DNA of 64,000 nt from a virus (taxonomy: Duplodnaviria > Heunggongvirae > Uroviricota > Caudoviricetes), in IMG/VR virus record IMGVR_UViG_3300011008_000007. One strand, 5' to 3'. Below the pieces are notes generated by a model that worked only from the letters and a program-made list of their open reading frames with translations, searched no databases and had not been told where the DNA came from. Shown one piece after another: positions 18,909 to 57,011 of this stretch (the first letter of the stretch is position 1; the number at the start of each line of letters is the position of its first letter). The translations under genes and the position numbers were made by a program.

Positions 18909-21900
18909 TTAGATTTGGCGCTTACCGCCAGCTTTTCTAATTCCTTGATACATTTTTTTACTTGTGTTTCTATAAGATTGTTCAAGTAAATCTTTTCCTA
19001 ATTTCTTCAAATCTTCGACAGTCGCGGCATCTGCGCTTCCCTCTATGTTGATAAGATTATCATAATATTGAGTTACTGTACCGAGATTATCGACGTTCAA
19101 TTTTGGTATATTGGTTTCCGGAGCCTTTATAATTTCAGACATATCTCCTTGCGCCAATGCAATAAGTCTACCAGTTAATGTAGCAGGTATAACACCATCT
19201 CCTTTTGCAAGAGGTGTAATTGTACCTTTGTTTGAAGTAATTAGTTCTTGACCTCTTTCGTTTATCCACGAATACATATTTCGAGGTACAGAACGTGTAC
19301 CCGAAGCATTGTGCCCCAATACAAGACTACTTGCTGTATTGGTTCCAATTCCTAAGTGCGTTAGCAATTGTATTAGGGTTTCATTTACTCCATTTACAGA
19401 ATCAGCCACTAATGATTGCCCTGACGAAAAGACTTCCATAAGCGAATCAATATCTTGACTAATTTCTTTCCAATTATCATCAAATGCTTCTTGAAGAGTA
19501 TCTTTTAAATCAGAAAGAGAATCTTCACTTATTTCAAGCAAATGGTCTTGAACGGTCTCATCGAGTTCTTCCTGTGCTTCTGCTAAATCCGACAATAGCT
19601 GTGCTTTTTTGGCTTTTGCAGCAGCAGAATTTATACCTTCGAGTGCCGCCAATTCAGATTGCAATTCTTGAATATTTTTGTTCTTCTCACGAATAGATTT
19701 ATCGTATTCATAATAATCTTTTTTGGCTTGGAGTGCATCATTCCTTGCGTCTATCAATTCAAACAAATTATCCAATTCTGTTTGAGCCATTTCTTTATAC
19801 ATAGATACAATTTCGTCCACGGCAGACTTCATATCCTTTGCGCCAGACAATATTTTGTCTTGTAAATCGGCAACTTTTTCAGCATACTCTTCGGCGGTCA
19901 AAATGGACGTGTTGTATAACTCTCCCAACGCCCTGTAACCATCCAAGTATTCATCATAAGTAATTGCTCCGCTATGTAGCTGTTCTAAAAGGACTTGATG
20001 TTGTTCGTTAAATTCTGCATTATTTAATAGATTTTTATTTCTCAATTCATTTAGTTTTTCTAATTCTTTTTCATATTCAGAAATAGAATTTCTGGCATTT
20101 TCATAATTTTGAACCTCTGTGGCTGCTCTTGCTATACCATATTCCGTTAGCTGTCCGTCTTTATCAAATAACATATCGTCACTAATTAAATCTCCCAATC
20201 CATCAACTATTTTTTGGAATCTTTCTATTCCAACGATTGCTTTTTCAAACGGATTCAAATAATACTCTACCAATGAATTGCTAATATCTTTAACTTCGGC
20301 TAAATATTTGTACTCGTCCGCCAAATATCCTTCTTCGAGAGCTCTCCATTGTGCGATAGTTTTTCCGCCATAAACACCATCAGAAGAGCCCTGAGCTAAT
20401 ACCATATTATTATGGGCTTCTTCTGCTTCTCTTCTTGCGGCAATAGCTTTCCTTTGAGCTACAGCTAACTCTTCTCGATAAACAGCAGAACCCTCATCTT
20501 GACCGAGTTTTTGCTGTAAATCGACTAATGCTTCCAGGCGGTTTTTAAATGCATCCAATAATTCTAATCCTTTTTCTAAGGTGTCTATTGGGAGCATAGC
20601 GATAGCATTATTCCACTCTTCTTGGGATATTCTACATTCCTCAGCAGAGTTTTGATAACCCCAATATGCTTCCATAGCGTCTTTATATTCTTGCGAATCG
20701 GTTGTCCAGTAACCGCTTGCTAAGTTTTTCTGAATTTGGTCATACACAGCTTGCGCTTCTTGTTCGTAGAGTTGCTGGTCAATAACAGATTGGGCGATTA
20801 GGGTTTGATAATCTGTTGCCGTTAATGTCAAACCTCTTGTGGTAGCCAATTTTTGAGCAGTTTCGATTTTAGTAGTTTTTGCTTTATTTTCATTACGTTT
20901 GTTTTCGTACTCTTTTTCTACATTGGAAACCATCTCTGCACCAATAGCAGCCTTTTCCGCTTTTGCGGTTTGCTCGTCAATTGCTTTTTGAGCTTCTGCT
21001 TCTCTAAGGTGTTCTAAGGCGTTATTATAATCAACACAAGCCTTATAGAATTTGTATGTGATATAACCCTTGGAATAATATTCTGCCAACTTAGCAATAA
21101 CATTAGCAGGAATAATAGTATTGGCTTTCGCGGCTTTTTGTGCCTTATCAATATATTTATCTACCGTCTTCTTTTGGGACTTGCTAAGATTACCATAATT
21201 CTTGCCACGATGAGCTTTATTAGCCATATTATTGGCTATAATTTTATTTCTGTTTTTATTCTTGTCTTTCTTAAACTCGTTGATTTCTTTTTGGTCATCA
21301 GAAAGAATAGTATCATATCCAGATGCAACCTTTTCAAGATATTGGTTTGCTTCTTTTGCATTTTTAGCATTATCTGCTTTCTGTCTATTTAACTCTTGTG
21401 TATTTGAAGTGGCTGTATCTTTGTTTCCGTACTTAGTAGCAATGTTTTCTAATTTTTCAGCAGAATTTGCAGCATATTCCGTGGCTTGTTCGAGCCTTGC
21501 GGTTTCAACATTTTCTAAAGATAAATTGTAAGCATACAAACGGGTATATACAGACTGATTTACAGAGCGAATAGTGTTAAGGTCAGAATTTGAAATAGGC
21601 TTTTTCTTTTTAATAGCATTACGAGCGTTTTGTAAAGCCTTTTTATATTTCTTCCTCTTTTTCTTATTTTTAATTTTCTTTAGGTTCTTCTTTTTAAGTT
21701 GTTTGTTAATGTTGCTTTTCGCCGTTCTACCCAAAGAATCTCTATCCGATTGTGCTTGTGAAGTCGCGGTCGAATAAGCACTATTCTCCTTATCAATAGC
21801 AGAATTACTATAAGATAGTTGGCTGTTTGCCGCACCATAAAAACTACCAGATGTACTTGTATATCCGCTTGTTCCAATAGATTGATATGTACTTACCTTG

Positions 21901-24900
21901 TCGATTTTAGCATCTCTTTGAGCATCATGTAAATCTTTAAGGTCGTTGATATAAGTGCGAATATTACCGTGTAATTCAGTTAAGGCATCGCTGGCATCTT
22001 GTGCTTTGTCATACCAATCTTGATAAGAACTAATAACTTCTTGCATTCTATCGCCATATGAACTAATATCCATAGTACCATTGGCAACTTTTTTCTTAAT
22101 ACTCTTTGCTTGCTTCTTATTGATTATACCAAGAGAAACCGCTTTATTTAAAGTTTTATTTGCTTGTTTAGTATATTTTGAATATGCAGTTTTTTCATTT
22201 CCAGTTTGAACAGCGGTTGCACTTATTGCTTTTCTATAATTCTTTGTAGCAGAAGAATAATTATTATTATTTGTGGCATTTTCAGCCTTAGTAATATATC
22301 GGTCAATCCTATCAGTTTGACGTTCAAGTTTAATCTCAATCCAATCAAATAATTTATCGAACCAATTTTGGAATTTGGTTAATAGTTTATCCTCAGACGA
22401 ACTGCTTGAAGAACTACTCGATGAACTGCTTGAAGAACTACTCGAAGAACTACTCGATGAACTACTTGAAGAATTGTTAGACGTGTTAAAGCTGCCACTT
22501 CCTTTAGAACCACTAAAAGCATTACCCCAAACAAAAGATTGTCCTCTCTTTTTACCCGTGGTAATCTGTCCCGTTGATAGAAGTTGCTTAGATTGGTTGT
22601 GGTCAAAAATAATATCTCCACTTTTAACATCTATCATTTCGGCACTTTTTTCGCCGATAGTATAATAGTGTCCGTTGCGAGCTAAGATTTCAAATCCTTT
22701 TTCTCCAACTAAGGCTTTGCTGCTATACTTTCCGCTATATAAACCATCTGCGGCAGAAACTCCAAAATTAGAGGTCGTTGTCGTTTTCTTTGTATCTTTA
22801 ACTTTGCCTTTTTTGTCTAAGGTTATTTCAGTTGTAGTAACAGTAACGTTTTTCATTCCTGACGTATCGGTTTTATATTTAAACTTTGCCTCTACGTCGT
22901 GTTTTCCGTCTTTTACGTCTTTTTCAAAATTTGTTATTAAACCAAAAAACGGATTGTAAGAAACAAGTACGGTTTGCTGTTGAGGTTCTTCTTTTTTGGC
23001 TTCGCCATTCTCATCTTTATATCCAACATCAACCATAACCTTTGGCGTAATTGCTTCGATACTACCTTGTAATTGAGTAAGGTCATCTTCGGAAACAGTT
23101 ACACCGGATTTTATCTTTATTCCTTCTTTTCCGCTCTTTTTATCTCCTGTGATATTATCAATAGTGTTTTGAAACTCTTTTGTGTCAAGATTTAATTTTG
23201 CCTTTGTTTCTTCTGGGAGCTTTTTAATCTCCTCCGAACACTCTTTGATTTTTTGAACACTATCTGAGGTTTCGCTACCCGTTTTAACGGCAACCTCATA
23301 GTCGTTGATATATCCTTGGAGTTCTTGAAGTTTGGCAACAGCCTTAGCGCCATCGGATTCTGGGTCGTCAAAATCACTTTTTACATCAATATCCATAATG
23401 GCAGGCTGTTGAAGTTCTTGTTTCTTTCTAATTAGATTTGCCAAAACAATTTGAACTTGATTGGCGTCTTCATCATCTATTCCGACTTTGAAGTTACCAT
23501 TACCATCGTCCCAATTGTTTTTCTCCATTGTTTTTTGGACTTCGAGAATTTTATCTGCGATATTATCAGAATTTACATCCTCTAATTCATAATCTAATTT
23601 AAGAACTCCGCTTTTTTCTAATTTGCTTTTTGCACTTTCAAAAGAACTCTTTAAATCATCCTCAGACATTTCTGCTACGTCAATATCAACCTCAAAACCA
23701 TATTCGGTTAATTTTGAAAGCATATCTTCGACAAATTCAGTAGTGGTTCCCAATTGGTCAGCAAGGTCGTCTTTATCGGAAATATCAAATGAATAATTGC
23801 CATTCTTGTCTTTTGTGGCATATTTATTACCCTCAGAATCTTCCAGTTCTGTAAGCGCTTCTACGAAATTTTTAACGCCCTTTTCGTCTTCATCAAGGAA
23901 ATCTAAAATAGAATAGCTTGTACCTTTTATAGTATTTCCAAGATTTTCATAGGCAGAAGTAACCTCATCAACGCTTGCAGTAGACAAATCCTTGCCAGAA
24001 AGCAAATCAACATAAGTTCTAAATTCTTCCGTACCAACTAAACCTTTGTCATACAAGTCCTTGATGTCACTAAGTTTATCCCTAATATCATCATAAGTGT
24101 CGCCAGCTTCGCCATTATTTAAAGCATCTTGCCACGCTTGATATTTCGACGTTAAGGCTTCATATTGAGAAGCTAATTGCTCTGTATCTTGAATCTTTTG
24201 GGCAATTGCAGACCTTTCGCTTTCAAGCTGGGTTAATTTTGCAGTATTATTTCCGCAAGATTTAATCTCGTCTGTTAGTGAATTGTATTTATTTTGAAGT
24301 TTCGTAAGTTGTGTTGTAATTTCGCTCTTCTTACTGTTGTTATATTCGGATTGTAGCTTTTTAAACTCAGTTGTGTTTAAACGAATACCTTGCGCAGTAT
24401 GTTCAAACAGTTCAAATTGGTCATATTCGTCCAAATCGCCAAATAATTCTTTTACTTTTGAAATACTGTCGTCTGATAATCCAGTATCTCCAAATCCTTC
24501 AGAAATAATTGTATTTATTTCTTCCAGGTTATCTTTGACTCCGGACAAATCAAATTCAAAACTGTCTGTATCTGTTGCTTTAAATTCTTCAATTTTGGTT
24601 TTCAATTCATCCCAAGAAGTTATAGTATCATCGTCGATTTTTAGAATAGTAGAAATATCATCATAAGTCCAAGTCGATAATTTCTTTTTTGCGTCAGAAA
24701 CCGAAATCATACCGTTAGATAATGAGTTGATTCTATTATATACAGTATCTAAATTTTCTCCTTCCGCACCTATATCGCGGAATCCAGACATAATAGCGTC
24801 TTTTGTTTCTTTGGTTATTCCGTCAATACTATTTAATTCCGATGTTAATGCTTTATGATATTCTCTATATTTTTGTAAATCAATTTCTCCATTTTTGAAT

Positions 24901-26738
24901 AAGTCAAATGCTTCGGATAAATCAGTATATTTTGAAATATCAAACTGACTATTTTTAAAAATGGATATAATATTATTTTTAATATAGTCTTTGGCTGCGT
25001 TTGCATCTTCAAATTTTAAATTTGAATAATCGAGATTGTTTATAGCTTTTTGTACGATACCTTGAAACTCATCCGACAATGCAACATAAGAATCCTCTGT
25101 ATTCAACCACGCAAACAAGGTTTGAGTTAAAGAGCCCCAGTTTTGTTTGATTTCTCCCTTTTTGGTTGTTATTTGTTTTTCAATATCATTAACTTCTTCG
25201 TTAAAAACGTTTTCTATTTGCTGAAATCCTGCTCTCAATACTCTTGTTTGTTCGTCAGAAATTCCTCTTTCATCTCCGCCAATAAGAAATCTAAAACCTC
25301 CGCCAAATGAATATGATTCGCTTTCGTCTTGATACTCTATCCCTGCCGATTGAAGTAAATTTCCAATATATTCCTTGTAAGCCTTCACATATGCTTTCGC
25401 ATTATCGCGATTTTGACTATCGCTCAAATTATTATCAAACTTAAATCCCAAATCTTCGGCTGAATAATCTAAGTAATAAGAATCATATACTGTTTTACCA
25501 AATGCGGTTCCAGCTTTGGGCTTGGCTTGCAATTCATCAATAATTTGCTTTTGAATATCAATTTCTTTTCCGTTTTTGTCCGTGAAAGTAAGCCCGTTAG
25601 AAACAACTGTATCTACCATTAATTCATAAGTAGATTTGTTATTGATAAGTTCTTGCAACTCTTCTTGATATTTTTTGTCCTTTTCGAGCGCATCATTATA
25701 TACATCGTCTATGTTTTCGGCAATTTTTTGATTTGCAAGCTGTTGTTCTACCTCTAATAAATTCCTTAAAGAACTGGTAATGTCATTAACGTTTCCGTCT
25801 AATTTTACAATAGCGTTGCCGTTTTCATCATAAATAACTGGTAAATTAGAAAAATTATCCGCAAGTTCTTTGCTTATATCTAAAAACTCACTATACTCAT
25901 CTGCATTTAAACTTTTGTTTTTTCCTGTAAACGTATCAATGCCTTGGGATAACTCTGCAAATCGCTTACTTGAATTACTAATAACATCTTGCTGGGATTG
26001 TAATGCATCAGATACTTCTTGAATTTTCGACTTAGCCTCTTCTGCGGCTTCGGCAAGTTTTTCTGTTCTGTTAAGAACATTATCAAGAAATGTTGTAATA
26101 CCAGTCATAAGAAGTTGCACAATTAAACCAATTCCCATGCCGATTGCAGTATTTAAGGCAGTTGTGGCAACCTGTAATCCGATTGAGGCAACCTTCGAGG
26201 AAATAAGTGTGCCTATATAACCCCTCATTGAAGCATTGCCAGAATCAACATTCGACAAATATTTTCCAAGTATTCCGTTGGACTTGCCTGCGGCTTCTGC
26301 AAATTGTTCTTGGTTGAGAGATGTTGATTCTAAATCATTGTTATATGTGTTAATAAGAGAACGCACAGAACTAAAAGATTTATTTTGTGCAGCGGTTTGT
26401 ACGGTCATTGCGTCGCTTTTGACTACATAACCATTTACTGCTGCTTCCATTTCTTCAACATCCCTTGAAACCGCGTTTAAACTTAAAGCATATTCTTGCG
26501 CTTCTGCCGATGCTTCACGCATTGACATTTCAAAAGCCTCATTTGCTGGAACGCCTTGGTTAATCAATGATAAATAATTCTGTATGGAAGACATATCGGT
26601 GGTTAGGTCTTCAAAACCAGAAAACGTAATTCCTTGGCTCTCTTGGAAAATTGAGGTAATCTGACTTTTTAATGTTGAAAAAATAGACGAAATTTTTAAT
26701 TTGCTTTGTTCTGCTTCGTCTTCTATTGTTTTAAATAT
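18909..26738 (-). CDS. Tape measure protein, exon 2 (2609 aa)
   Basis: Long helical ORF. The ORF-track TTG start overlaps the intron-terminal G at 26739; joins in frame to exon 1. Confidence 0.85.
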   Translation of the reverse strand: MFKTIEDEAEQSKLKISSIFSTLKSQITSIFQESQGITFSGFEDLTTDMSSIQNYLSLINQGVPANEAFEMSMREASAEAQEYALSLNAVSRDVEEMEAAVNGYVVKSDAMTVQTAAQNKSFSSVRSLINTYNNDLESTSLNQEQFAEAAGKSNGILGKYLSNVDSGNASMRGYIGTLISSKVASIGLQVATTALNTAIGMGIGLIVQLLMTGITTFLDNVLNRTEKLAEAAEEAKSKIQEVSDALQSQQDVISNSSKRFAELSQGIDTFTGKNKSLNADEYSEFLDISKELADNFSNLPVIYDENGNAIVKLDGNVNDITSSLRNLLEVEQQLANQKIAENIDDVYNDALEKDKKYQEELQELINNKSTYELMVDTVVSNGLTFTDKNGKEIDIQKQIIDELQAKPKAGTAFGKTVYDSYYLDYSAEDLGFKFDNNLSDSQNRDNAKAYVKAYKEYIGNLLQSAGIEYQDESESYSFGGGFRFLIGGDERGISDEQTRVLRAGFQQIENVFNEEVNDIEKQITTKKGEIKQNWGSLTQTLFAWLNTEDSYVALSDEFQGIVQKAINNLDYSNLKFEDANAAKDYIKNNIISIFKNSQFDISKYTDLSEAFDLFKNGEIDLQKYREYHKALTSELNSIDGITKETKDAIMSGFRDIGAEGENLDTVYNRINSLSNGMISVSDAKKKLSTWTYDDISTILKIDDDTITSWDELKTKIEEFKATDTDSFEFDLSGVKDNLEEINTIISEGFGDTGLSDDSISKVKELFGDLDEYDQFELFEHTAQGIRLNTTEFKKLQSEYNNSKKSEITTQLTKLQNKYNSLTDEIKSCGNNTAKLTQLESERSAIAQKIQDTEQLASQYEALTSKYQAWQDALNNGEAGDTYDDIRDKLSDIKDLYDKGLVGTEEFRTYVDLLSGKDLSTASVDEVTSAYENLGNTIKGTSYSILDFLDEDEKGVKNFVEALTELEDSEGNKYATKDKNGNYSFDISDKDDLADQLGTTTEFVEDMLSKLTEYGFEVDIDVAEMSEDDLKSSFESAKSKLEKSGVLKLDYELEDVNSDNIADKILEVQKTMEKNNWDDGNGNFKVGIDDEDANQVQIVLANLIRKKQELQQPAIMDIDVKSDFDDPESDGAKAVAKLQELQGYINDYEVAVKTGSETSDSVQKIKECSEEIKKLPEETKAKLNLDTKEFQNTIDNITGDKKSGKEGIKIKSGVTVSEDDLTQLQGSIEAITPKVMVDVGYKDENGEAKKEEPQQQTVLVSYNPFFGLITNFEKDVKDGKHDVEAKFKYKTDTSGMKNVTVTTTEITLDKKGKVKDTKKTTTTSNFGVSAADGLYSGKYSSKALVGEKGFEILARNGHYYTIGEKSAEMIDVKSGDIIFDHNQSKQLLSTGQITTGKKRGQSFVWGNAFSGSKGSGSFNTSNNSSSSSSSSSSSSSSSSSSSSSSSSSSEDKLLTKFQNWFDKLFDWIEIKLERQTDRIDRYITKAENATNNNNYSSATKNYRKAISATAVQTGNEKTAYSKYTKQANKTLNKAVSLGIINKKQAKSIKKKVANGTMDISSYGDRMQEVISSYQDWYDKAQDASDALTELHGNIRTYINDLKDLHDAQRDAKIDKVSTYQSIGTSGYTSTSGSFYGAANSQLSYSNSAIDKENSAYSTATSQAQSDRDSLGRTAKSNINKQLKKKNLKKIKNKKKRKKYKKALQNARNAIKKKKPISNSDLNTIRSVNQSVYTRLYAYNLSLENVETARLEQATEYAANSAEKLENIATKYGNKDTATSNTQELNRQKADNAKNAKEANQYLEKVASGYDTILSDDQKEINEFKKDKNKNRNKIIANNMANKAHRGKNYGNLSKSQKKTVDKYIDKAQKAAKANTIIPANVIAKLAEYYSKGYITYKFYKACVDYNNALEHLREAEAQKAIDEQTAKAEKAAIGAEMVSNVEKEYENKRNENKAKTTKIETAQKLATTRGLTLTATDYQTLIAQSVIDQQLYEQEAQAVYDQIQKNLASGYWTTDSQEYKDAMEAYWGYQNSAEECRISQEEWNNAIAMLPIDTLEKGLELLDAFKNRLEALVDLQQKLGQDEGSAVYREELAVAQRKAIAARREAEEAHNNMVLAQGSSDGVYGGKTIAQWRALEEGYLADEYKYLAEVKDISNSLVEYYLNPFEKAIVGIERFQKIVDGLGDLISDDMLFDKDGQLTEYGIARAATEVQNYENARNSISEYEKELEKLNELRNKNLLNNAEFNEQHQVLLEQLHSGAITYDEYLDGYRALGELYNTSILTAEEYAEKVADLQDKILSGAKDMKSAVDEIVSMYKEMAQTELDNLFELIDARNDALQAKKDYYEYDKSIREKNKNIQELQSELAALEGINSAAAKAKKAQLLSDLAEAQEELDETVQDHLLEISEDSLSDLKDTLQEAFDDNWKEISQDIDSLMEVFSSGQSLVADSVNGVNETLIQLLTHLGIGTNTASSLVLGHNASGTRSVPRNMYSWINERGQELITSNKGTITPLAKGDGVIPATLTGRLIALAQGDMSEIIKAPETNIPKLNVDNLGTVTQYYDNLINIEGSADAATVEDLKKLGKDLLEQSYRNTSKKMYQGIRKAGGKRQI

Positions 26739-26765
26739 CAAACTATAAAACTATCTAAAAAACTA

Positions 26766-26794
26766 TTGACAAATATAATAAACAATGATATAAT
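26766..26794 (+). promoter_or_regulatory. sigma70/sigmaA promoter of the intron cargo gene
   Basis: TTGACA-17 nt-TATAAT, with TG near the -10 box. Confidence 0.85.
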
Positions 26795-26821
26795 ATAATA
26801 AATCAAAAAGGAGTTGTGTTT

Positions 26822-27280
26822 ATGGGATTACATTACTATTATTGTCCAAATTGCGCTAAAGTAGATATTAGACCGTGGAAACAATGTGCAAACTGTGGAA
26901 CAAATATACCACCTATAAAGTCAAAAATGGAAATGTATTTTTATATGAATAAAGCACAGGAGATATATGGTGATAGCAATCATTGGTATGATTGCCTATT
27001 GTCAGAAGTAAAAAAGCATCCTTGTTTTAATGAAGATGCACCTTATTCACAAGTTGCAAAAGAAATAACCAGTAATTACAAAAAGCATTACGAAAAAATT
27101 GCCGAAAGGGCAATAAATAAGGTTAATCAAGCAAATGCACCAAAATGTCCAACCTGCAAATCGACAAATATAAGAAAACTATCTGCCGTAAATCGCGCGG
27201 CACACGGTTATGCCTTTGGATTGTTTAGTAAAACTGCAAGGTCGCAATTCTGTTGTAATAACTGTGGATATAAGTGGTAA
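26822..27280 (+). CDS. Zinc-ribbon protein (four CxxC pairs), antisense inside the intron
   Basis: CPNC..CANC at the N-terminus; CPTC...CNNC at the C-terminus. RBS AAGGAG 8 nt before ATG 26822 (track start 26816). Confidence 0.85.
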   Translation: MGLHYYYCPNCAKVDIRPWKQCANCGTNIPPIKSKMEMYFYMNKAQEIYGDSNHWYDCLLSEVKKHPCFNEDAPYSQVAKEITSNYKKHYEKIAERAINKVNQANAPKCPTCKSTNIRKLSAVNRAAHGYAFGLFSKTARSQFCCNNCGYKW

Positions 27281-27288
27281 TATGTTTT

Positions 27289-27322
27289 AGGTAAATGTTT
27301 CGACATTTACCTTTATTTTTTT
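27289..27322 (+). terminator. Intrinsic terminator of the cargo gene
   Basis: AGGTAAATGT-TTCG-ACATTTACCT followed by a T-rich run on the plus strand only. Confidence 0.85.
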
Positions 27323-27647
27323 GTCAATAGTTTTAAATATTATTATATAAAATAGTTCCGAGCGCATATTATCGTGACATAGTTGCATATAATCACGACC
27401 ACCTGTTGTCGCTACTGTGAGGGCTTGTCTATGTAAGACCTATCCCTGCGAACCAACGGAGCGCAACATTTTTACGACCCTAAATTGTCGCCAAAGTAGG
27501 GGAGTAGTTACGTTGTACCGTTTTCCTCGCATATTGAGGCTTCGTTTAAACGAATGTATCTCATTCGCCGCAATATCTAAACTGTCTATATCTAAACAGA
27601 ACTGTTATTGCTATCGGCATATTTATGAGGACAAACATTTTAGTCCT

Positions 27648-29912
27648 ACCGATGTTTTTAAATGAAAGAGCACCCATTGCAACGCTTATCAATGTTGGCA
27701 ATGTTCCAAAAGTATTGTTTACTCCTTCAAATATTTGCAACAATCCGCTTCCCATATCAATGAGAGTCTTTACACCCTCTGAATCAACAAGAGAAGTTGA
27801 ATAAGATTCCCAAGACGCTTGTAATTGGTTTAAGTGTCCTTGAATACTATTCATGTATTTTGCTTGTTCATTTGCAGCGGTTCCAGTTGCATCCGTTGCG
27901 GCTTGTGTTGCTTTTTCAACTTGGTCAAAATTGTTAATTACAGCCGCAACAGCATTAGCATTTCGCTTTCCGCTTATACTTTCAAGTAAATCGGCTTGTG
28001 CGGTGTCGCTCAAATCATCATATACTTCGGAAATTTCTTTTAAAATTTGATATGTACTTTTGAAATCTCCGCTATCTTCAAAAATATTTACTTTTCCGTT
28101 AGTAAGGTTAAGAATATGGGTTTGCATTTGAGAAACCGACTCAACGTTTTCGTCAACTTCTTCTCCTAATTCTTCTAACTCGCCCTTCATGCCGCGCAAA
28201 CGCAAACTTGTGGTGTTAAGCACGGTTCCAGCTTTCTCGGCATTTTGAATAACCTCAATCATACCAGTTGCCAAACCCGTAGATTCCTGAATGGAGTTAT
28301 TGGCTTCTGATAAAGCAGAAGCAGAACGTTCCATTGCGGCACCTACATCTGCGGCACTCAAAGCAAATTCATTACCTAATTTGTCATAAATATCACTTAA
28401 ATAAGAAACAGCTTCCGTTGTATTACCTTGATAAACCTCATCTAATTGTTCTTGGAAGCCTTTATATGCGGTAATTAAGTTTTTGGTAGCTGTATCTGTA
28501 TCAAGGTCTGTAACGTGTTGATATTGGGTTGTGATTTCTGCCAAGCCCTCAGCGGTGTCGGTATCAAATCCAAGTTTTACCCAGCCTGTAGTTAAATCTA
28601 CAATATCTTTGAGTGTGGCTCCGTATTCTTTTGCAGAATCCTTCATTTGATTGAAGAGGTCTGTATAGCCACTTTTTGTTAAATTTGTTACACGATATAA
28701 GCCGGTCATTGCCGTATCAATATTTACAACATTTTGATACATTTCTTTCATTGCCGCAACTGCACGATATATCAATTGCGCCGAAGAAATATATTTAGAT
28801 ACTGTTGTAAATGATTGTTTGAATACTGTACCTAAACTTTGACCAGTCTTACCCAACGAAGTCGCTTGGGCTTTAATCGAATTAAATTCGTTTTCAACTT
28901 GTTTAAACTGACCGACAGTTGCGTTTCCAGAGGAATTTAGCTGAGTTAGCTTATCTCTTAACGACTGTATTGCCGAACCAAAATCTTTACTTGCTTTAGA
29001 GTTTTTAGACATCCAAGTGGAAATCTGATTATCTAAATTCGTTATTTGAAGCGAACTAACAAAAGTTTTAGATTCAGCCGATATAGTAGATAAATTACTT
29101 TTGACTCTTGAAAGAGTTGAATCCCACTTATCATATGCGGCAACTAATTCATCTCCGCTTGCCGAACTAATAGTAGCCTGCAAACTGTTTAGGGTGTTTA
29201 AGTCCTGTTGAACAACTGCTAATTTGCTATGACCAGTTGTGCCAAGTCTTTCATATTGAGCTGTAACCTGAGCAATTGAGGCGGTCATTTTTTCTGGAGC
29301 GCCCTGTAAGTTCATTGCTTGGCTCAACGAAGTCGAATATCTTTTTGCCGCCGCTTCACCTGCATCAAATGTTTGAGTCAAAGTATTACCTTGGCTAATC
29401 AACTTTCCTGTTTCCGTTTCAATTTCTCTAAAAGTAGTTACAATATTACCAGACTTATCTAACCCTTGAATATCAAAACGAATAGTATTTCCTTTTTCTC
29501 TGGAGGTAATACGTTTTATAGCAATATCTAAGTTTTCTAAATCTTTTGTTACATTGCTTATCGAGCTTTTATCAACTCCAATTTTTGATAGGCTCGTTCT
29601 TAATTCATCTATAGTATTTGCGGTAATTTTTACTTGTCCTTTTATTCCTGAGATACCCGATTGAAAACCTTTTGCAAAACTACTTGCCGCACTCGACCCC
29701 GCAGATTGCATATCTCCCGACATTTTAACGGGATTGATATTTATATCGAATTTATGCTTGCTCAGTTCAGACTGTATTTCGTTAATTAAAGCCGCCGTTT
29801 CTGCTTTGAAATTTGAAATTTTGTATTGTTTATCTTGTATTTCTTGTACTTGCTGCAAAAATTTCGCTGTATTTAATTCAGCTTGAAACAGCGCACTAAA
29901 ATTGTCTGCCAT
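27648..29912 (-). CDS. Tape measure protein, exon 1 (755 aa; TP901-type core)
   Basis: Core motifs VVNIDTAMTGLYRV...AEKAGTVLNTTSLRLRG. The last 28 codons of the track ORF are intron read-through. Confidence 0.85.
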
Positions 29913-29963: not shown

Positions 29964-31010
29964 TTATAAATCCTCTAATCCTTTTTGTTCAACTTTCTTT
30001 ATTCCCTCTGCTCCAAAGTATTTATCAAAAGAATCTTCTGCATCGAGGTCTGAATAAACGTCAACAAGTGAAACATCAGACCACCCGAATATGTCTTTGA
30101 TTACATTTGCAGGAATACCAGCCTCTACATATCTTGTGGTTGCCCTATGTCTGCATAAATGCGGGAACCAAGGCTTACCTGCCAATTTAGTGAAAGTTCG
30201 AGCATATGAATCCATTGTGCTTGTGTTCATTGGTTCATCTATCCATTTTCCGTCCTTATACATAGGGAAGAGCCAATCACTTGTAATGCCCAATCTTTCT
30301 CTTTCTTCTATCCACATATCTAAATATGGCTGAAATGGCTTTGCTAAAGTGTAGCAATAAAGAAGTTTACCTCTCTGCCCGCGACCTTTGGTTTTAATTT
30401 TTTCAGGAGTCTTATATAATGCCCCTTCACAAATTAAGTTTTCTTTATCAAAATAAGAAACCTTAAAGCGCGGAATTTCGGCTTTTCTTCTTCCACCATA
30501 TATCATCAATGCCAAAACGCAGGCTTTCATATAATGTTTTCGCTCAACCAATTTCCCCAATAAATCTTCCAATTCTTCATCGGTAAAGACTGGTTGTTCT
30601 CTAACAGCCTCGTTGACTGGATTTTCTATCTTATCCCATATTTTTTGATAATTTGGATATTCATCGTCAAGGATTTTTACGATAAAATTCTCCATACTTC
30701 GCATAACAGATTTAACAAATCTCATTCTTCTCGGCGACCAACCCCATTCATTCAATGCGGTATTTTGAAATTTAGATACTTCACGTTTTTTCATTTCAAC
30801 AAAACTTTTATTCTTGTTATGGTCTAAATTCCAACACCAAAGAATATGGAGCGCCGCACGATATTGATTTATTGTGCTTGGAGCTCTATCAATTGAAACC
30901 AAATGTTCCAAAAAATCATCTTCGAGTTCAAGACTCTCTTCGTTGGCTTGTGCCAATTTATCCTCAGAAGTTAAATCATTATAAACAGTTGAACGTCCTT
31001 GTTTAGCCAT
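29964..31010 (-). CDS. Tyrosine recombinase
   Basis: Catalytic set: R in GGRRKAEI, HLCRH, FGWS...VYS. Probable start ATG at 31010. Confidence 0.9.
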   Translation of the reverse strand: MAKQGRSTVYNDLTSEDKLAQANEESLELEDDFLEHLVSIDRAPSTINQYRAALHILWCWNLDHNKNKSFVEMKKREVSKFQNTALNEWGWSPRRMRFVKSVMRSMENFIVKILDDEYPNYQKIWDKIENPVNEAVREQPVFTDEELEDLLGKLVERKHYMKACVLALMIYGGRRKAEIPRFKVSYFDKENLICEGALYKTPEKIKTKGRGQRGKLLYCYTLAKPFQPYLDMWIEERERLGITSDWLFPMYKDGKWIDEPMNTSTMDSYARTFTKLAGKPWFPHLCRHRATTRYVEAGIPANVIKDIFGWSDVSLVDVYSDLDAEDSFDKYFGAEGIKKVEQKGLEDL

Positions 31011-31031
31011 TTTGTCACTTCCTTTCAACAG

Positions 31032-52286: not shown

Positions 52287-52562
52287 CATTATCTTAAACA
52301 AATCACGCTACCGATTTGTTAGGGATTAACCCTCTCTTGCTTTCGCAAGAAGTTGAGACTATATCTTCATCCGTAAGGATGCCTACCGCTTCCACCATCA
52401 ATCGCTTATGGTGTACTCTACTCGCTTCCGAATTATATTCGTGCTTTCGATAGTCGTTGAACCTTACCCGTTAGGGTCTTGGCTGCTGATTATCCCGTAG
52501 GACTTCCCAGCAATTCAATAGGAGTTGCCCCATATATTCCTATATAGGCGACCTGTCATTCA
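52287..52562 (-). mobile_element. Group I intron 1 (276 nt, no ORF)
   Basis: P GAAUUGCUGGGA, Q AAUCAGCAG, R GUUCAACGACUA, S AAGAUAUAGUCU; exon ends in U, intron ends in G. Confidence 0.92.
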
Positions 52563-54068
52563 AGTCATTGGCGCGCGAAAACAAGTAATTTCGTCCGCTC
52601 CCTTATCAATCCAATATTTGTGATACACTTCACCACTTTTTAATAATCCAGTAACCTCTAAACCAAACATACTTTGACATAGGGCATAGGGGTCGCCCGA
52701 AATCATCGCAAAATTAGCATTAACCTTAATTGCCCCGCGTTTTGCCATTTCAATTCTCTTGGAAATCATATTCCAAATTTTGCGCCGCACATACGGGTCA
52801 TTAATCATTCGCTCATCTGCCATAAGTGCCCGAACACAAAAATCATAGTTGTCGTTAAGAACATTCTCGTCTGTTATTCCAAATCCAGCCATAAATACGA
52901 GGCTCCTACGATAATCCATTCCTAATACACCGGCAATTTCATCAATCGTAGGTTGACACAATTCTTGAAGCTCGCTATCCGTAAATTGATAACTTTGCAA
53001 AAACTGATAATTCGTATTCCTAACATTTTCAAGTTCGTCGGGAGTAATTTTAGGTGTTGAGAATTGATAGTGGTTTTCTTGGCAATTTGCGTAGTAGTCT
53101 TCCCAGCTATCATAACACTCCCACAACTTCAACATAGACTCCGTTAAAATTACATCTGCTTCACGAATATCTCTTTTGTCGCCCCACACATCCTCAATCT
53201 CGTATGTGCCGGCGATTTTCTCGGCAAACTCCACAAAGTCAAAAGTATAAACCATACCTTTAGTCCAAGCATACCGTGTATTCATTCCTGATAACGGTTC
53301 GTCTGAACCAGTAAGATATTGATTAACCTTGCGAGAATATGAGGGGAGCATTAAACCATATCCATCAGAATCATTGTGTTCTATCTCGAATCCATCCTCA
53401 TATGTAAGAATAGGTTCTCCGTCCGTTTCATCGTTTATAAGGATAACATTATCTTTGAAGTGGGTTATGCAGTCTTTTATAACTATAAACCCTCGTGGTT
53501 CAGGGATGGGGGTTGAACCAGAACAGATAAGGGCTTGATATGCCTCTAATTTTGCCGGCACCAAAGGAACGTTCTTGTTACGCCCGTTGTCGAGCCTCTT
53601 TTTCAGCTCAGGATAAAGTAGTTCATTTACATAAACAATTGTAGAGTTCTTTATTCCGCCGTTCGTTCCAAGGAAGCGCCTGTACTTTATTCCGTTTATT
53701 GAAAATCCGCAATTTGCTCGGTCATAGTCTTTATTGCTATCCATAATGACGCATACATAGTCTTTTTGAAATTGAAGCTCATAAAGTTTATTGTATAAGG
53801 CTTTAACTTCTGCTTTGGTTTCTCTTGATTTTGGTTTACGCTTTGTATATTTGATTTTCTTTTGTATGGATTTTATTTCCTCGTCTATGCCGCAAACTCC
53901 GTTAAGTTCATCTATGAACCTTAGCAGTTGACTATCGTTCAATGAAACAATGTTGTCGGGATAATCACTCATTGCAACATTAAGAGGAAGAGTTAAGTTC
54001 CACTTGGCTTTTTTAAGCTGCTTGCTATGGATTTTATAAATTAACTTCAAGCAACTTTTTTGTTCCAT
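52563..54068 (-). CDS. YonO-like single-subunit RNA polymerase, exon 1 (502 aa)
   Basis: Ends CFRAPMT and splices to CHNN; the spliced 924-aa product has the two-barrel polymerase DxDGD motif. Confidence 0.85.
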
Positions 54069-54653: not shown

Positions 54654-54682
54654 ATTATAGACGCGTTTTATAAACTTGTCAA
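54654..54682 (-). promoter_or_regulatory. sigma70 promoter driving the RNAP operon
   Basis: TTGACA-17 nt-TATAAT on the minus strand. Confidence 0.85.
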
Positions 54683-54728
54683 TAGTTTTTTAGGAAAGTT
54701 TATAAAAGTTTAACAAAAAAACTCCCTT

Positions 54729-55940: not shown

Positions 55941-56125
55941 CATTTATTTATTTTAATTATTGAATATAATATATAATACTTATATAGCGCAAAAATTTAA
56001 TTCTTAAAAAGAATATATCACATTAAACCGGTTATTTTATAAAACTTTTTAATTCCTGGAATCCGCATCAAATCTGACTTTTTTATATTTCAGTAAATTT
56101 TTTTAAAAAAAATTTGCAAAAAGTA

Positions 56126-56154
56126 TTGACAATTTAAAAACACTATGCTATATT
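56126..56154 (+). promoter_or_regulatory. Early sigma70 promoter 1
   Basis: TTGACA-17-TATATT, AT-rich UP region. Confidence 0.75.
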
Positions 56155-56237
56155 ATAAGCACAACAAAGGCAACGGCGCAAAACATAACGCCGTAAATCA
56201 AAACAAAAAACATTTTTAAAAAACTTTTAAAAAACAC

Positions 56238-56266
56238 TTGACAAACAAAAAATATTGTGATATAGT
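56238..56266 (+). promoter_or_regulatory. Early sigma70 promoter 2
   Basis: TTGACA-17-TATAGT with extended -10 TG. Confidence 0.85.
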
Positions 56267-56941: not shown

Positions 56942-57011
56942 ACCTAACAATAAAACTATTGATAAAAATATTATAGCTGCGCTATCGGCTCGACGGGCGG
57001 GAGGTTTAATC

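Follow-up and report, generated by a model that had tools for sequence, protein, structure and literature searches.

Phage group I introns are usually viewed as selfish RNA plus a homing nuclease, and phage morons, such as those of lambda and HK97, are self-contained units that stand between late genes and have a promoter and a terminator of their own. In Bacillus cereus-group prophages, tape-measure genes carry the group I introns TMP-IVS1-3 (Tourasse and Kolsto 2008, PMC2504315); these are of the IA1/IA2 types and occur with or without endonuclease genes, and some of them have no complete homing endonuclease gene and spread passively with the phages (PMC2504315). The IStrons CdISt1 and BcISt1 are group I introns with an IS200/605 element embedded at the 3' end (PMC4227781, PMC3984707), and the endonuclease genes of the T4 td, nrdB and nrdD introns stand under their own promoters (PMC2988022). 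A search of the literature found no paper describing phage introns whose cargo is antisense, promoter-driven and other than an endonuclease.

We describe here a plus-strand unit in a window of 64,000 nucleotides (the whole stretch of DNA analysed, from a 103-kb phage genome). The tape-measure gene is split by a group I intron, and the unit is probably, though by no means certainly, a self-contained accessory gene (moron) placed antisense in the intron's periphery, at the P9 position. As in TMP-IVS1-3, a group I ribozyme occupies a conserved tape-measure site, to which P1 and P10 are adapted; unlike TMP-IVS1-3, for which no antisense promoter-driven cargo is reported, the present family carries such cargo, is missed by the Rfam model RF00028, and occurs on large contigs from gut and rumen phages. 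As in the IStrons, a large non-endonuclease cargo lies between ribozyme core and 3' splice site and would be excised with the intron, so that an insertion of this kind would be harmless. The IStron cargo, however, is a transposon that moves the whole element, whereas the cargo here is a promoter-terminator cassette directed against the host gene and variable in content among relatives; in the window's intron its sole ORF is the zinc-ribbon gene described below, and no IS200/605-type transposase was found there with Pfam. The cassette resembles phage morons in having its own host-type promoter and terminator around an ORF in a late structural operon, with presence and content differing between related phages; unlike morons between genes, it stands inside an intron and on the opposite strand, and the host gene is intact only if the RNA is spliced. 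As in the T4 td, nrdB and nrdD introns, the ORF would stand in a loop that extends from a peripheral element of the phage's group I intron, and apparently uses its own promoter rather than read-through, but the T4 ORFs are sense-strand GIY-YIG or HNH homing endonucleases, whereas the present ORF is antisense and shows no nuclease features in family profiles or sequence motifs. The coordinates of all features are given in Table 1.

Table 1. Features of the intron-split tape-measure gene and of the antisense cassette (positions in the window)
Feature	Position	Strand	Remarks
Tape-measure exon 1, 755 codons	27648..29912	-	PF10145 PhageMin_Tail, 8.7e-17
Group I-type intron in tape-measure gene, 909 nt	26739..27647	-	5' splice site after GGT (Gly755); omega-G 26739
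Tape-measure exon 2, 2609 codons plus stop	18909..26738	-	C-terminal part matches CB473P1 residues 1383-1480
Ribozyme core P1-P8	27361..27653	-	manual group I structure, 25-sequence alignment
P1	27648-27653/27613-27618	-	core helix
P10 guide	27619-27624	-	core element
P3	27537-27540/27401-27404	-	core helix
P4	27526-27531/27447-27452	-	core helix
P5	27518-27522/27455-27459	-	core helix
P6	27444-27446/27421-27423	-	core helix
P7	27408-27413/27361-27365	-	core helix
P8	27392-27399/27371-27378	-	core helix
Predicted closing stem, 5' arm (intron RNA)	27320..27349	-	exact core 27320-27334; orphan copy of promoter 15-mer without -10
Predicted closing stem, 3' arm	26744..26773	-	exact core 26759-26773; plus-strand core is UP/-35 module of cassette promoter
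Promoter, sigma-A/sigma-70-type	26766..26794	+	TTGACA 26766-26771, 17-nt spacer, TGaTATAAT (TATAAT 26789-26794)
Ribosome-binding site AAGGAG	26808..26813	+	direct reading of letters; 8 nt upstream of ATG 26822
Gene, 152-aa double zinc-ribbon protein	26822..27280	+	N-terminal ribbon, helical middle, highly conserved C-terminal ribbon
Intrinsic terminator of cassette	27289..27322	+	10-bp stem and TTCG loop 27289-27312, then T-run TTATTTTTTT

Exon 1 aligns with residues 51-440 of the tape-measure protein of Enterocloster phage CB473P1 (1510 aa, contiguous); since exons 1 and 2 match the N and C ends of this one contiguous protein, they are a single gene that has been split. The exon 1 ORF continues into the intron as far as a stop at 27561, and no Shine-Dalgarno sequence was found ahead of the first start codon of exon 2. 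All six introns with a mapped exon 2 (those of the window and of the related loci L012, L014, L045, L033 and L016) have a G before exon 2 and an exon join in frame, and the 3' splice context AGUWYG, which ends at the splice site, is conserved. P1 (AUCGGU/GCCGAU in the window) is 97.7% paired in a 25-sequence alignment, with three of its six pairs covarying; the 5' splice site carries the U.G pair in 20 of 22 sequences and C.A in L052. Covariation also links P10 to exon 2 (window, AAAUAU/AUAUUU; L016 and L033, GAAUAU/AUAUUC). Among GenBank phages, blastn gave no match to 26400-27900; tblastn gave none to the first 250 aa of exon 2, and in four DNA runs, as short contig pieces only, no record bridged an intron-less or cargo-less form. 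Many of the DNA-run pieces that fell on 26757-26797 are other promoters of similar sequence.

The intron core has the topology P3-P4-P5-P6-P7-P3'-P8-P7' with a P3/P7 pseudoknot and a bulged P7, and contains canonical-looking P and Q elements (AAUAUGCGGGAA and AAUCCGCAGGG). In the 25-sequence alignment, the 77 pairs of 15 helices are paired in 93.5% of cells (33-44% in slid controls), compensatory changes occur in 52 of them, and the observed covariation was reached by none of 500 shuffles. P3, P4 and P8 are 99.5-100% paired, P3 reaching 100% with all four pairs covarying; P7 is invariant across the alignment and hence uninformative for covariation. Two candidate elements were rejected: the local hairpin CCUC/GAGG at 27528-27543, which is broken in relatives and whose bases belong to P3 and P4, and the first GCGCUC copy as a P7 strand, which varies without a covarying partner. 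For the 909-nt intron, the alignment thus speaks in favour of the complete group I fold, from P1 to P8 and including the P3/P7 pseudoknot. RF00028 gave no match to the intron even at E <= 10 on 361 nt, and Rfam at E <= 1 to 10 gave no group I match in the window's 909-nt intron, L002, L012 or L014; the same model does detect another intron in the window (86.9 bits). The P9/P9.1 hairpins are kept in relatives and lost in the window's intron and in L014, and because of this loss the splicing competence of the window's intron is assumed from its intact long exons only.

The first-pass annotation had placed in the 3' peripheral loop of the intron a self-contained plus-strand unit, composed of a promoter, an AAGGAG site, an ORF for a 152-aa protein that contains four CxxC pairs, and a terminator facing the plus strand only, and had described it as enclosed by an exact 15-bp inverted repeat; every element was found again at its position. 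The cassette starts about 27 nt past P7' of the covariation-supported core, and 20 nt separate its end from the 3' splice site. Its promoter matches the consensus in 12 of 12 positions, with TG ahead of the -10, and is the sole 12/12 site within 26000-28500. The ORF encodes 152 aa from ATG 26822 or 154 aa from GTG 26816, with the pairs CPNC, CANC, CPTC and CNNC. Only for the plus strand was a terminator called at this place; the hairpin is not followed by a U-run in minus-strand RNA.

The promoter 15-mer occurs in six exact copies in the 103-kb genome and heads four other promoters, each with a TG-extended -10; a sense-strand promoter at the orphan copy was rejected for want of a -10. The cassette promoter belongs to the phage's own sigma-A-type promoter set, which is consistent with the earlier proposal that the unit is read by host RNA polymerase, and the sharing of its module with this host-type set suggests early or lysogenic expression. 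Host RNA polymerase would transcribe the cassette from the early/host-dependent promoter class of the phage, so that the zinc-ribbon protein would be made early, and possibly in a lysogen, independently of the late minus-strand transcript.

The inverted repeat consists of AAAACTATTGACAAA and its exact reverse complement, the two cores listed in Table 1. An exact inverted repeat of 15 nt occurred in 1 of 500 dinucleotide-preserving shuffles of the 909-nt intron, and pairing between the arms extends to 30 nt at 80% complementarity. The suggestion that the repeat pair forms one stem in the minus-strand RNA agrees with the prediction for a 1001-nt RNA, in which the closing stem has pair probabilities of about 1.0 and, in the MFE structure, spans from 8 nt past P7' to a point 5 nt short of omega-G. 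In the late transcript, the arms would pair over the exact 15 bp, widening to about 24 of 30; the stem would replace the missing P9/P9.1 hairpins of the window's intron and L014, loop out the 546-nt cargo, and put omega-G beside the G-binding site. With these two juxtaposed, the tape-measure mRNA would be spliced and encode 3364 aa.

The repeat might instead be two copies of a promoter UP/-35 module, one functional and one orphan, rather than an RNA structural element; it would then have originated by recombination between promoter copies, or would be a paired protein-binding site (for RNA polymerase or a regulator) flanking the cassette. We regard this as unlikely, though not negligibly so. 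It accords with the six exact genomic copies, of which the four outside the intron head promoters, with the absence of a -10 at the minus-strand (orphan) copy, and with the pattern in relatives, where the 15-bp repeat is not conserved: the closest relative, L014, shows no more than 8 bp, interrupted by a bulge, the pair in L045 is a different one of 10 bp, and the others have none that is significant. Because the exact repeat is thus unconserved and one arm is a genome-wide promoter module, a non-RNA origin may indeed apply to it. However, relatives already carry YUUGAC followed by a structural hairpin at the position of the window's terminator and orphan arm, and the orphan arm is therefore at least partly ancestral intron sequence. 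Further, the complementarity outruns the 15-mer and ends close to both P7' and omega-G, the 10-bp pair of L045 is arranged in the same topology, its 3' arm likewise covering the -35 (4.5% of shuffles fold equally well), and the window's intron is without the P9 hairpins that would otherwise position the 3' end. A 9-bp pair in L012 (UAGAAACUU/AAGUUUCUA) is probably due to chance; it competes with a conserved hairpin, and 13% of shuffles fold equally well.

Relatives in IMG/VR were reached via intron core motifs; searches there for related loci with the zinc-ribbon protein or exon 1 found none. The intron family was located on at least 42 viral contigs at the one tape-measure site: of 51 loci with the core, 42 have a tape-measure homologue ahead of it, which in most ends at that site. 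As a rule, the first cargo gene in the family lies antisense. An antisense zinc-ribbon gene directly follows the core in L011, L012, L014, L026/46, L041/48, L044, L045, L053 and L078, with promoters that score 9-12.5 of 12 and, in most, a GGAG-type ribosome-binding site. Other cargo of the slot comprises ToxN (1.4e-34), GmrSD_N proteins (on the sense strand in five family members), DUF2513, and a small membrane protein family at 11 loci; beside toxN in L016, no ToxI-like tandem array was found. The idea of a swappable cargo slot thus holds across the intron family, whose contents differ, but not among the nearest relatives, which have kept the same type of gene (39-49% identity, always antisense with its own promoter) and not the repeat. 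As these nearest relatives carry a homologue and not a swapped gene, the zinc-ribbon cargo is old in this clade.

Full-length homologues of the 152-aa protein were found at 36-55% identity, and the zinc-ribbon family comprises 3388 representative clusters at E <= 1e-3; members outside introns lie as cargo after TniQ in Tn7-like elements or beside IS and McrBC genes. Judged by homology, the protein is a member of a large uncharacterised family that is also cargo of Tn7-like elements. Compared with L014, dN/dS is 0.42 over the whole gene and falls to 0.15 for the last 50 codons, and by this measure the ORF is under purifying selection; the C-terminal 50 residues are strongly constrained, with 22 invariant columns made up of the Cys residues plus the block FGLFSKTARSQ. 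An AF2 model reached a mean pLDDT of 84.9, and a PDB fold search, in which the ribbons were searched only within the whole protein, gave no match at E <= 0.1 (best Z 4.0, on helical parts only). The best match in a PDB sequence profile search (eL34, E 0.25) and the only PADLOC matches (LmuB/LmuC, E 0.02-0.13) were taken as noise, and tblastn against GenBank phages gave no match.

A TFIIS/RpoP-like role had also been proposed, and a TFIIS/RPB9/RpoP-like factor that modulates the phage's own RNA polymerase would fit two zinc ribbons joined by helices and the top BFVD match, a homologue from the gut virome that bears the automatic name 'RNA polymerase I-like protein' (E 1.9e-6). The proposal found no backing in Pfam, where neither TFIIS_C nor RPB9 matched, nor in the fold comparison, where the TFIIS-named BFVD rows had E 0.16-1.2 and TM < 0.25; there is no conserved acidic hairpin, and the homologues in Tn7-like elements occur without such a polymerase. 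We consider this role extremely unlikely.

A functional tie of the protein to the intron, either as a new mobility factor (a site-specific DNA binder or homing-promoting nuclease) or as a splicing cofactor, is improbable as well. The gene does recur right after the core in at least nine distinct introns in the same orientation and position, and so steady a link to one intron clade might reflect a functional tie and not free cargo; the constraint on the C-terminal 50 residues, and the lack of any other candidate mobility gene in the window's intron, point the same way. Descent within one intron clade can nevertheless explain the association, many family members are without the zinc-ribbon gene and carry other genes, and full-length homologues exist outside introns. 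Moreover, Pfam, PHROGs, NCBIfam and PADLOC gave no nuclease family, only sub-threshold zinc-ribbon matches; no homing endonuclease motif (LAGLIDADG, GIY-YIG, HNH, His-Cys box, PD-(D/E)xK, EDxHD) was found in the sequence, the invariant columns hold no conserved acidic or His catalytic set, and the sense-strand GmrSD_N proteins are better nuclease candidates. On the accessory-gene reading the zinc-ribbon protein would not be the intron's nuclease; most likely it would be an accessory factor that binds nucleic acid or protein and serves host takeover, exclusion or defence.

The unit could also act mainly through convergent transcription that silences or delays tape-measure expression or splicing until late, with the ORF secondary. 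A strong promoter directed against the late operon from within the intron would suit such a function, as would the antisense rule for the first cargo gene and the overlap of the antisense promoter with the 3' splice site in L016 and L033. We hold this to be very improbable, given that the ORF is conserved as a protein, synonymous change being far above non-synonymous, and that the strong terminator in the window ends the transcript before the ribozyme core.

With the accessory-gene reading preferred, a wider interpretation may be offered tentatively, as one that could well prove wrong: the intron family would be a conserved 'safe harbour', in which insertions into an essential late gene are harmless because of splicing and where large gut and rumen phages maintain and trade genes for accessory and defence functions that are driven by host promoters. 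The double zinc-ribbon protein would then be a novel effector, made early or in the lysogen for superinfection exclusion or host takeover, and shared with Tn7-like elements. Automatic annotation misses the slot, since Rfam does not detect the intron and the two parts of the tape-measure gene are called as separate ORFs. The window's intron is a clean test case for the tolerance of a long cargo loop by a ribozyme lacking the P9 domain, and the large zinc-ribbon family, whose thousands of clusters occur in phages and in Tn7-like elements, is a target for functional work. This widespread intron family, at one tape-measure site, carries genes of other kinds, mostly antisense with host-type promoters, and some can be recognised as defence genes. 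Should these cassettes be expressed, introns would form a further place where phage accessory genes are stored and exchanged, beside inter-gene morons and defence hotspots.

The two tape-measure ORFs (see the table) flank a 909-nt intervening sequence, at 26739-27647, in a 103-kb IMG/VR provirus that was rated complete by CheckV, and of which the window represents the minus strand. ORF 1 aligns with residues 51-440, and the end of ORF 2 with residues 1383-1480, of one contiguous tape-measure protein (1510 aa) in Enterocloster phage CB473P1; the two are therefore halves of one gene. When GGT is joined to ATA, the halves are in frame and encode a 3364-aa protein.

Immediately upstream of the tape-measure gene, and like it on the minus strand, is a 354-aa tyrosine recombinase gene (PF00589, 1.1e-15); this site in the middle of the tail module is unusual for an integrase. 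In the cultured Thomasclavelia phage TR-TP1 (L005), tape-measure homology falls into two pieces on either side of a gene annotated as HNH endonuclease, the record having two matching places; this suggests another interrupted tape-measure gene.

The Rfam search gave no match for the intervening sequence, even at E <= 10 on 361 nt, though the group I model RF00028 does detect a different group I intron in the window (86.9 bits), and relatives were therefore sought. L014 and L012, both short metagenome contigs, carry the nearest zinc-ribbon homologues in the layout of the window, i.e. an antisense gene between two tape-measure pieces. Their non-coding part is 91% (L014) and 73% (L012) identical to the window in nucleotide sequence, whereas the exons share only 38-64% protein identity. 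Searches with a 19-nt core motif (45 IMG/VR contigs) and a second motif (25) were used to collect relatives; the core is present in 51 fetched loci, is preceded by a tape-measure homologue in 42 of them, and in most of these 42 the tape-measure alignment ends at the same residue.

A group I structure was written by hand on an alignment of 25 sequences (P1, P1a, P2, P2a, P2.1, P3, P4, P5, P5a-c, P6, P6a, P7 and P8, with the P3/P7 pseudoknot), and partners slid by 1-3 columns as well as shuffles served as controls. Standard pairs occupy 93.5% of cells, compared to 33-44% for the slid partners; two-sided changes were found in 52 of 77 pairs, and no shuffle reached the observed covariation. P3 is 100% paired (4/4 pairs covary), P4 100% and P8 99.5%; the P4 strands resemble the classical P and Q elements (AAUAUGCGGGAA and AAUCCGCAGGG), while P7, with a bulged A, is invariant and hence uninformative for covariation. 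In 20 of 22 sequences a U.G pair marks the 5' splice site, which lies after its U; the pair is C.A in L052, which would preserve wobble geometry. At the 3' splice site, a G in the conserved context AGUWYG precedes the junction in the six introns whose exon 2 is recognisable. The opening bases of exon 2 pair with a guide segment beside P1, which co-varies with them (P10; AAAUAU/AUAUUU in the window versus GAAUAU/AUAUUC in L016 and L033). By its anatomy, the intervening sequence is a group I intron unrecognised by RF00028. Its splicing competence is an assumption, the P9 domain being lost, and is based on the two long intact exons and the completeness rating of the genome.

A 130-aa antisense ORF closely follows, in the minus sense, the intron that Rfam detects at 52334-52571; the ORF has neither a Pfam match nor a good promoter and may be spurious.

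The cassette elements described in the first-pass annotation (inverted repeat, promoter, AAGGAG ribosome site, zinc-ribbon ORF with four CxxC pairs, and one-way terminator) were all found in place, and the interpretation given there is supported in part. The inverted repeat extends to 30 nt at 80% complementarity; when the 909-nt region was shuffled 500 times with dinucleotides preserved, an exact inverted repeat of 15 nt arose only once. Facing the minus strand within the cargo is a weak terminator-like hairpin (6-bp stem, three G-C pairs) followed by a T-run, which might act as an attenuator of sense transcription if the polymerase is terminator-sensitive.

Coordinates of features in the window, the full genome record (G000:C1) and related loci (L-numbers)
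Feature	Location	Strand	Details
Tape-measure ORF 1, 783 aa	27561-29912	-	PF10145 PhageMin_Tail
Tape-measure ORF 2, 2610 aa	18909-26741	-	without Shine-Dalgarno sequence
Tyrosine recombinase gene	29964-31028	-	
Exact inverted repeat, 15 nt	26759-26773 / 27320-27334		
Cassette promoter TTGACA-17-TATAAT		+	12/12 matches, TG-extended -10
Ribosome site AAGGAG		+	8 nt upstream of ATG 26822
Zinc-ribbon ORF, 152 aa	from ATG 26822	+	four CxxC pairs
Terminator		+	10-bp stem, TTCG loop, then T-run; + only in terminator scan
Hairpin within cargo	27098-27114	-	
Antisense ORF, 130 aa	51905-52297	+	
Promoter family	26759-26773, 54675-54689, 56119-56245, 56952-56966; G000:C1 6260, 22293, 24846, 36235		
3' peripheral pairings	~20-130 nt after GCGCUCG		L012, L011, L026, L053, L078, L018, L033
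ToxN	L016, L043, L054	sense	PF13958, 1.4e-34
GmrSD_N/DUF262 proteins	L021:1223-2167(+), L024:581-1549(+), L035:1845-2750(-), L040:738-1766(-)	sense	after core; 300-345 aa; E 6e-13 to 2e-22
L016 intron cargo	L016:5043-8172		3.1 kb between core and 3' site with perfect 6-bp P10
Split tape-measure homology	L005 (PQ571309.1) 25995-26766		
Tape-measure ORF end and following stretch	L002 (GenBank MT837120.1, fecal phage contig) 3640-6246		

The 15-mer of the repeat has six exact copies in the 103-kb genome, nearly all facing the plus strand of the window. Each of the four copies outside the intron is followed after 17 nt by a TG-extended -10, and upstream of them is a aaaCCTAtCAaa block that the cassette promoter has as well; the extended consensus is aaaCCTAtCAaa, AAAACTATTGACAAA, ~14 nt, TGnTATAAT. 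The plus-strand arm is a standard promoter module of the phage, very likely of the host-polymerase (early) class, and this promoter family probably marks the host-RNAP (early) transcription units; with the arm read as such a module, there is a stronger case that the cassette would be co-regulated with early genes. As a rival origin, the repeat might have arisen by recombination between promoter copies, as the 15-mer is a genome-wide promoter module and the minus-strand arm an orphan copy without a -10. The promoter-copy and RNA-stem readings are compatible; the fixed -35 could have served as template, to which an ancestral UUGAC arm became complementary.

In most relatives, three elements come between P7' and any cargo: a P9 hairpin, another hairpin that pairs through its loop with a strand downstream, and YUUGAC plus a hairpin. 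The loop pairing covaries (CUUAUC/GAUAAG, CUUGCC/GGCAAG, CCUAU/AUAGG), as does a further loop-to-strand pairing in the 3' peripheral domain (GUAUGA/UCAUAC), which suggests pseudoknots in the region of P9.1/P9.2. Neither P9 nor P9.1 survives in the window and L014, which have kept UUGAC plus hairpin alone, and the window's hairpin is the cassette terminator read from the other strand. P7' ends at 27361; the extended repeat starts at 27349, with 11 nt between it and P7', and runs to 26744, leaving 5 nt to omega-G. The first-pass annotation proposed that one stem loops the gene out. When a 1001-nt minus-strand RNA was folded, the core repeat paired at probability ~1.0 and the minimum-energy stem reached 27347/26744; it is thermodynamically and topologically reasonable that such a stem would loop out the gene and return the 3' end to the core, with comparative support only partial. 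In L045 a different 10-bp pair has the same topology, and its 3' arm likewise overlies the -35 (an equally good fold is reached by 4.5% of shuffles); L014 has 8 bp with a bulge; no significant closing-stem pair was found in L012, L033 and L016.

Common to the full-length homologues of the zinc-ribbon protein (36-55% identity) are a CPxC...CxxC ribbon at the N-terminus, helices in the middle and the C-terminal block KCPTCxSTN...FGLFSKTARSQFxCNNCGYKW; overall, 22 columns are invariant. A profile search matched 3388 representative clusters at E <= 1e-3, of which 101 reach E <= 1e-30; many of the clusters have the C-terminal ribbon alone in common, behind other N-terminal parts. With a dN/dS against L014 of 0.42 overall and 0.15 over the last 50 codons, the ORF is a genuine gene and under selection. 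The only matches in Pfam, PHROGs, NCBIfam and PADLOC were to zinc ribbons, all sub-threshold. The AF2 model (mean pLDDT 84.9) had no significant match in PDB; the best viral structural match is a gut-virome homologue automatically named 'RNA polymerase I-like', and neighbours in the Atlas are hypothetical proteins, mostly of viruses and Bacillota. Every TFIIS-type structural match had E > 0.1. The recurrent association of the gene with the intron family gives a small chance that the protein serves the intron itself. Homologues outside introns are located directly after TniQ in Tn7-like elements and beside IS and McrBC genes. We conclude that the protein represents accessory cargo of mobile elements, without recognisable nuclease identity.

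A zinc-ribbon gene, full-length or C-terminal domain, was found immediately after the core and always antisense in L011, L012, L014, L026/46, L041/48, L044, L045, L053 and L078, with promoters of 9-12.5 of 12, mostly with TG. Other antisense cargo comprises a family of 73-86-aa membrane proteins (11 loci), two more small families, DUF2513 proteins and several singletons, most of these genes with GGAGG-type ribosome sites. Sense-strand cargo comprises ToxN, a Cro/CI-type HTH protein, a DUF6088 protein and GmrSD_N/DUF262 proteins; the last could be the homing nuclease of the intron family or a defence gene, and their place inside the intron is putative. Cargo was taken as confirmed within the intron where both splice sites were mapped: zinc-ribbon genes in the window, L012, L014 and L045, a 63-aa antisense ORF in L033, and in L016 a sense-strand toxN plus five antisense ORFs, one with a zinc ribbon at its C-terminus. 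A ToxI-like repeat array was looked for next to toxN in L016 and not found. The 'swappable cargo slot' of the first-pass annotation is supported across the intron family by this varied cargo, but not in the window's own clade, where the zinc-ribbon cargo is, from the sequence comparison, inherited without recent swap.

In L002, a distantly related fecal phage contig, the same Gly-codon site is where the tape-measure ORF stops; by eye, the ORF is followed by a matching P1 (GCUGGGU/GCCCAGC) and P/Q/R/S-like motifs, and this stretch looks like a more distant group I intron. Promoter-driven genes lie beyond it, with a TTGACA-17-TATAAT promoter and a sense ORF first; at a greater distance, an antisense gene encodes a 74-aa protein that has the same zinc ribbon at its C-terminus. 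The contig does not extend to exon 2.

Group I introns in tape-measure genes, some without a complete endonuclease gene, are known from Bacillus cereus-group prophages (PMC2504315), IStrons comprise a group I intron able to carry large non-endonuclease cargo at the 3' end (PMC4227781, PMC3984707), and intron ORFs of T4 are under their own promoters (PMC2988022). The literature search turned up no phage group I intron described as carrying accessory or defence genes that are antisense and host-promoter-driven; the cassette within an intron therefore extends known kinds, group I intron and moron, rather than forming a new category. Transcription of the cassette, splicing of the intron and a role for the stem are what we infer for the window, and the importance of the finding lies less in the single cassette than in the family-wide pattern that it exposed.
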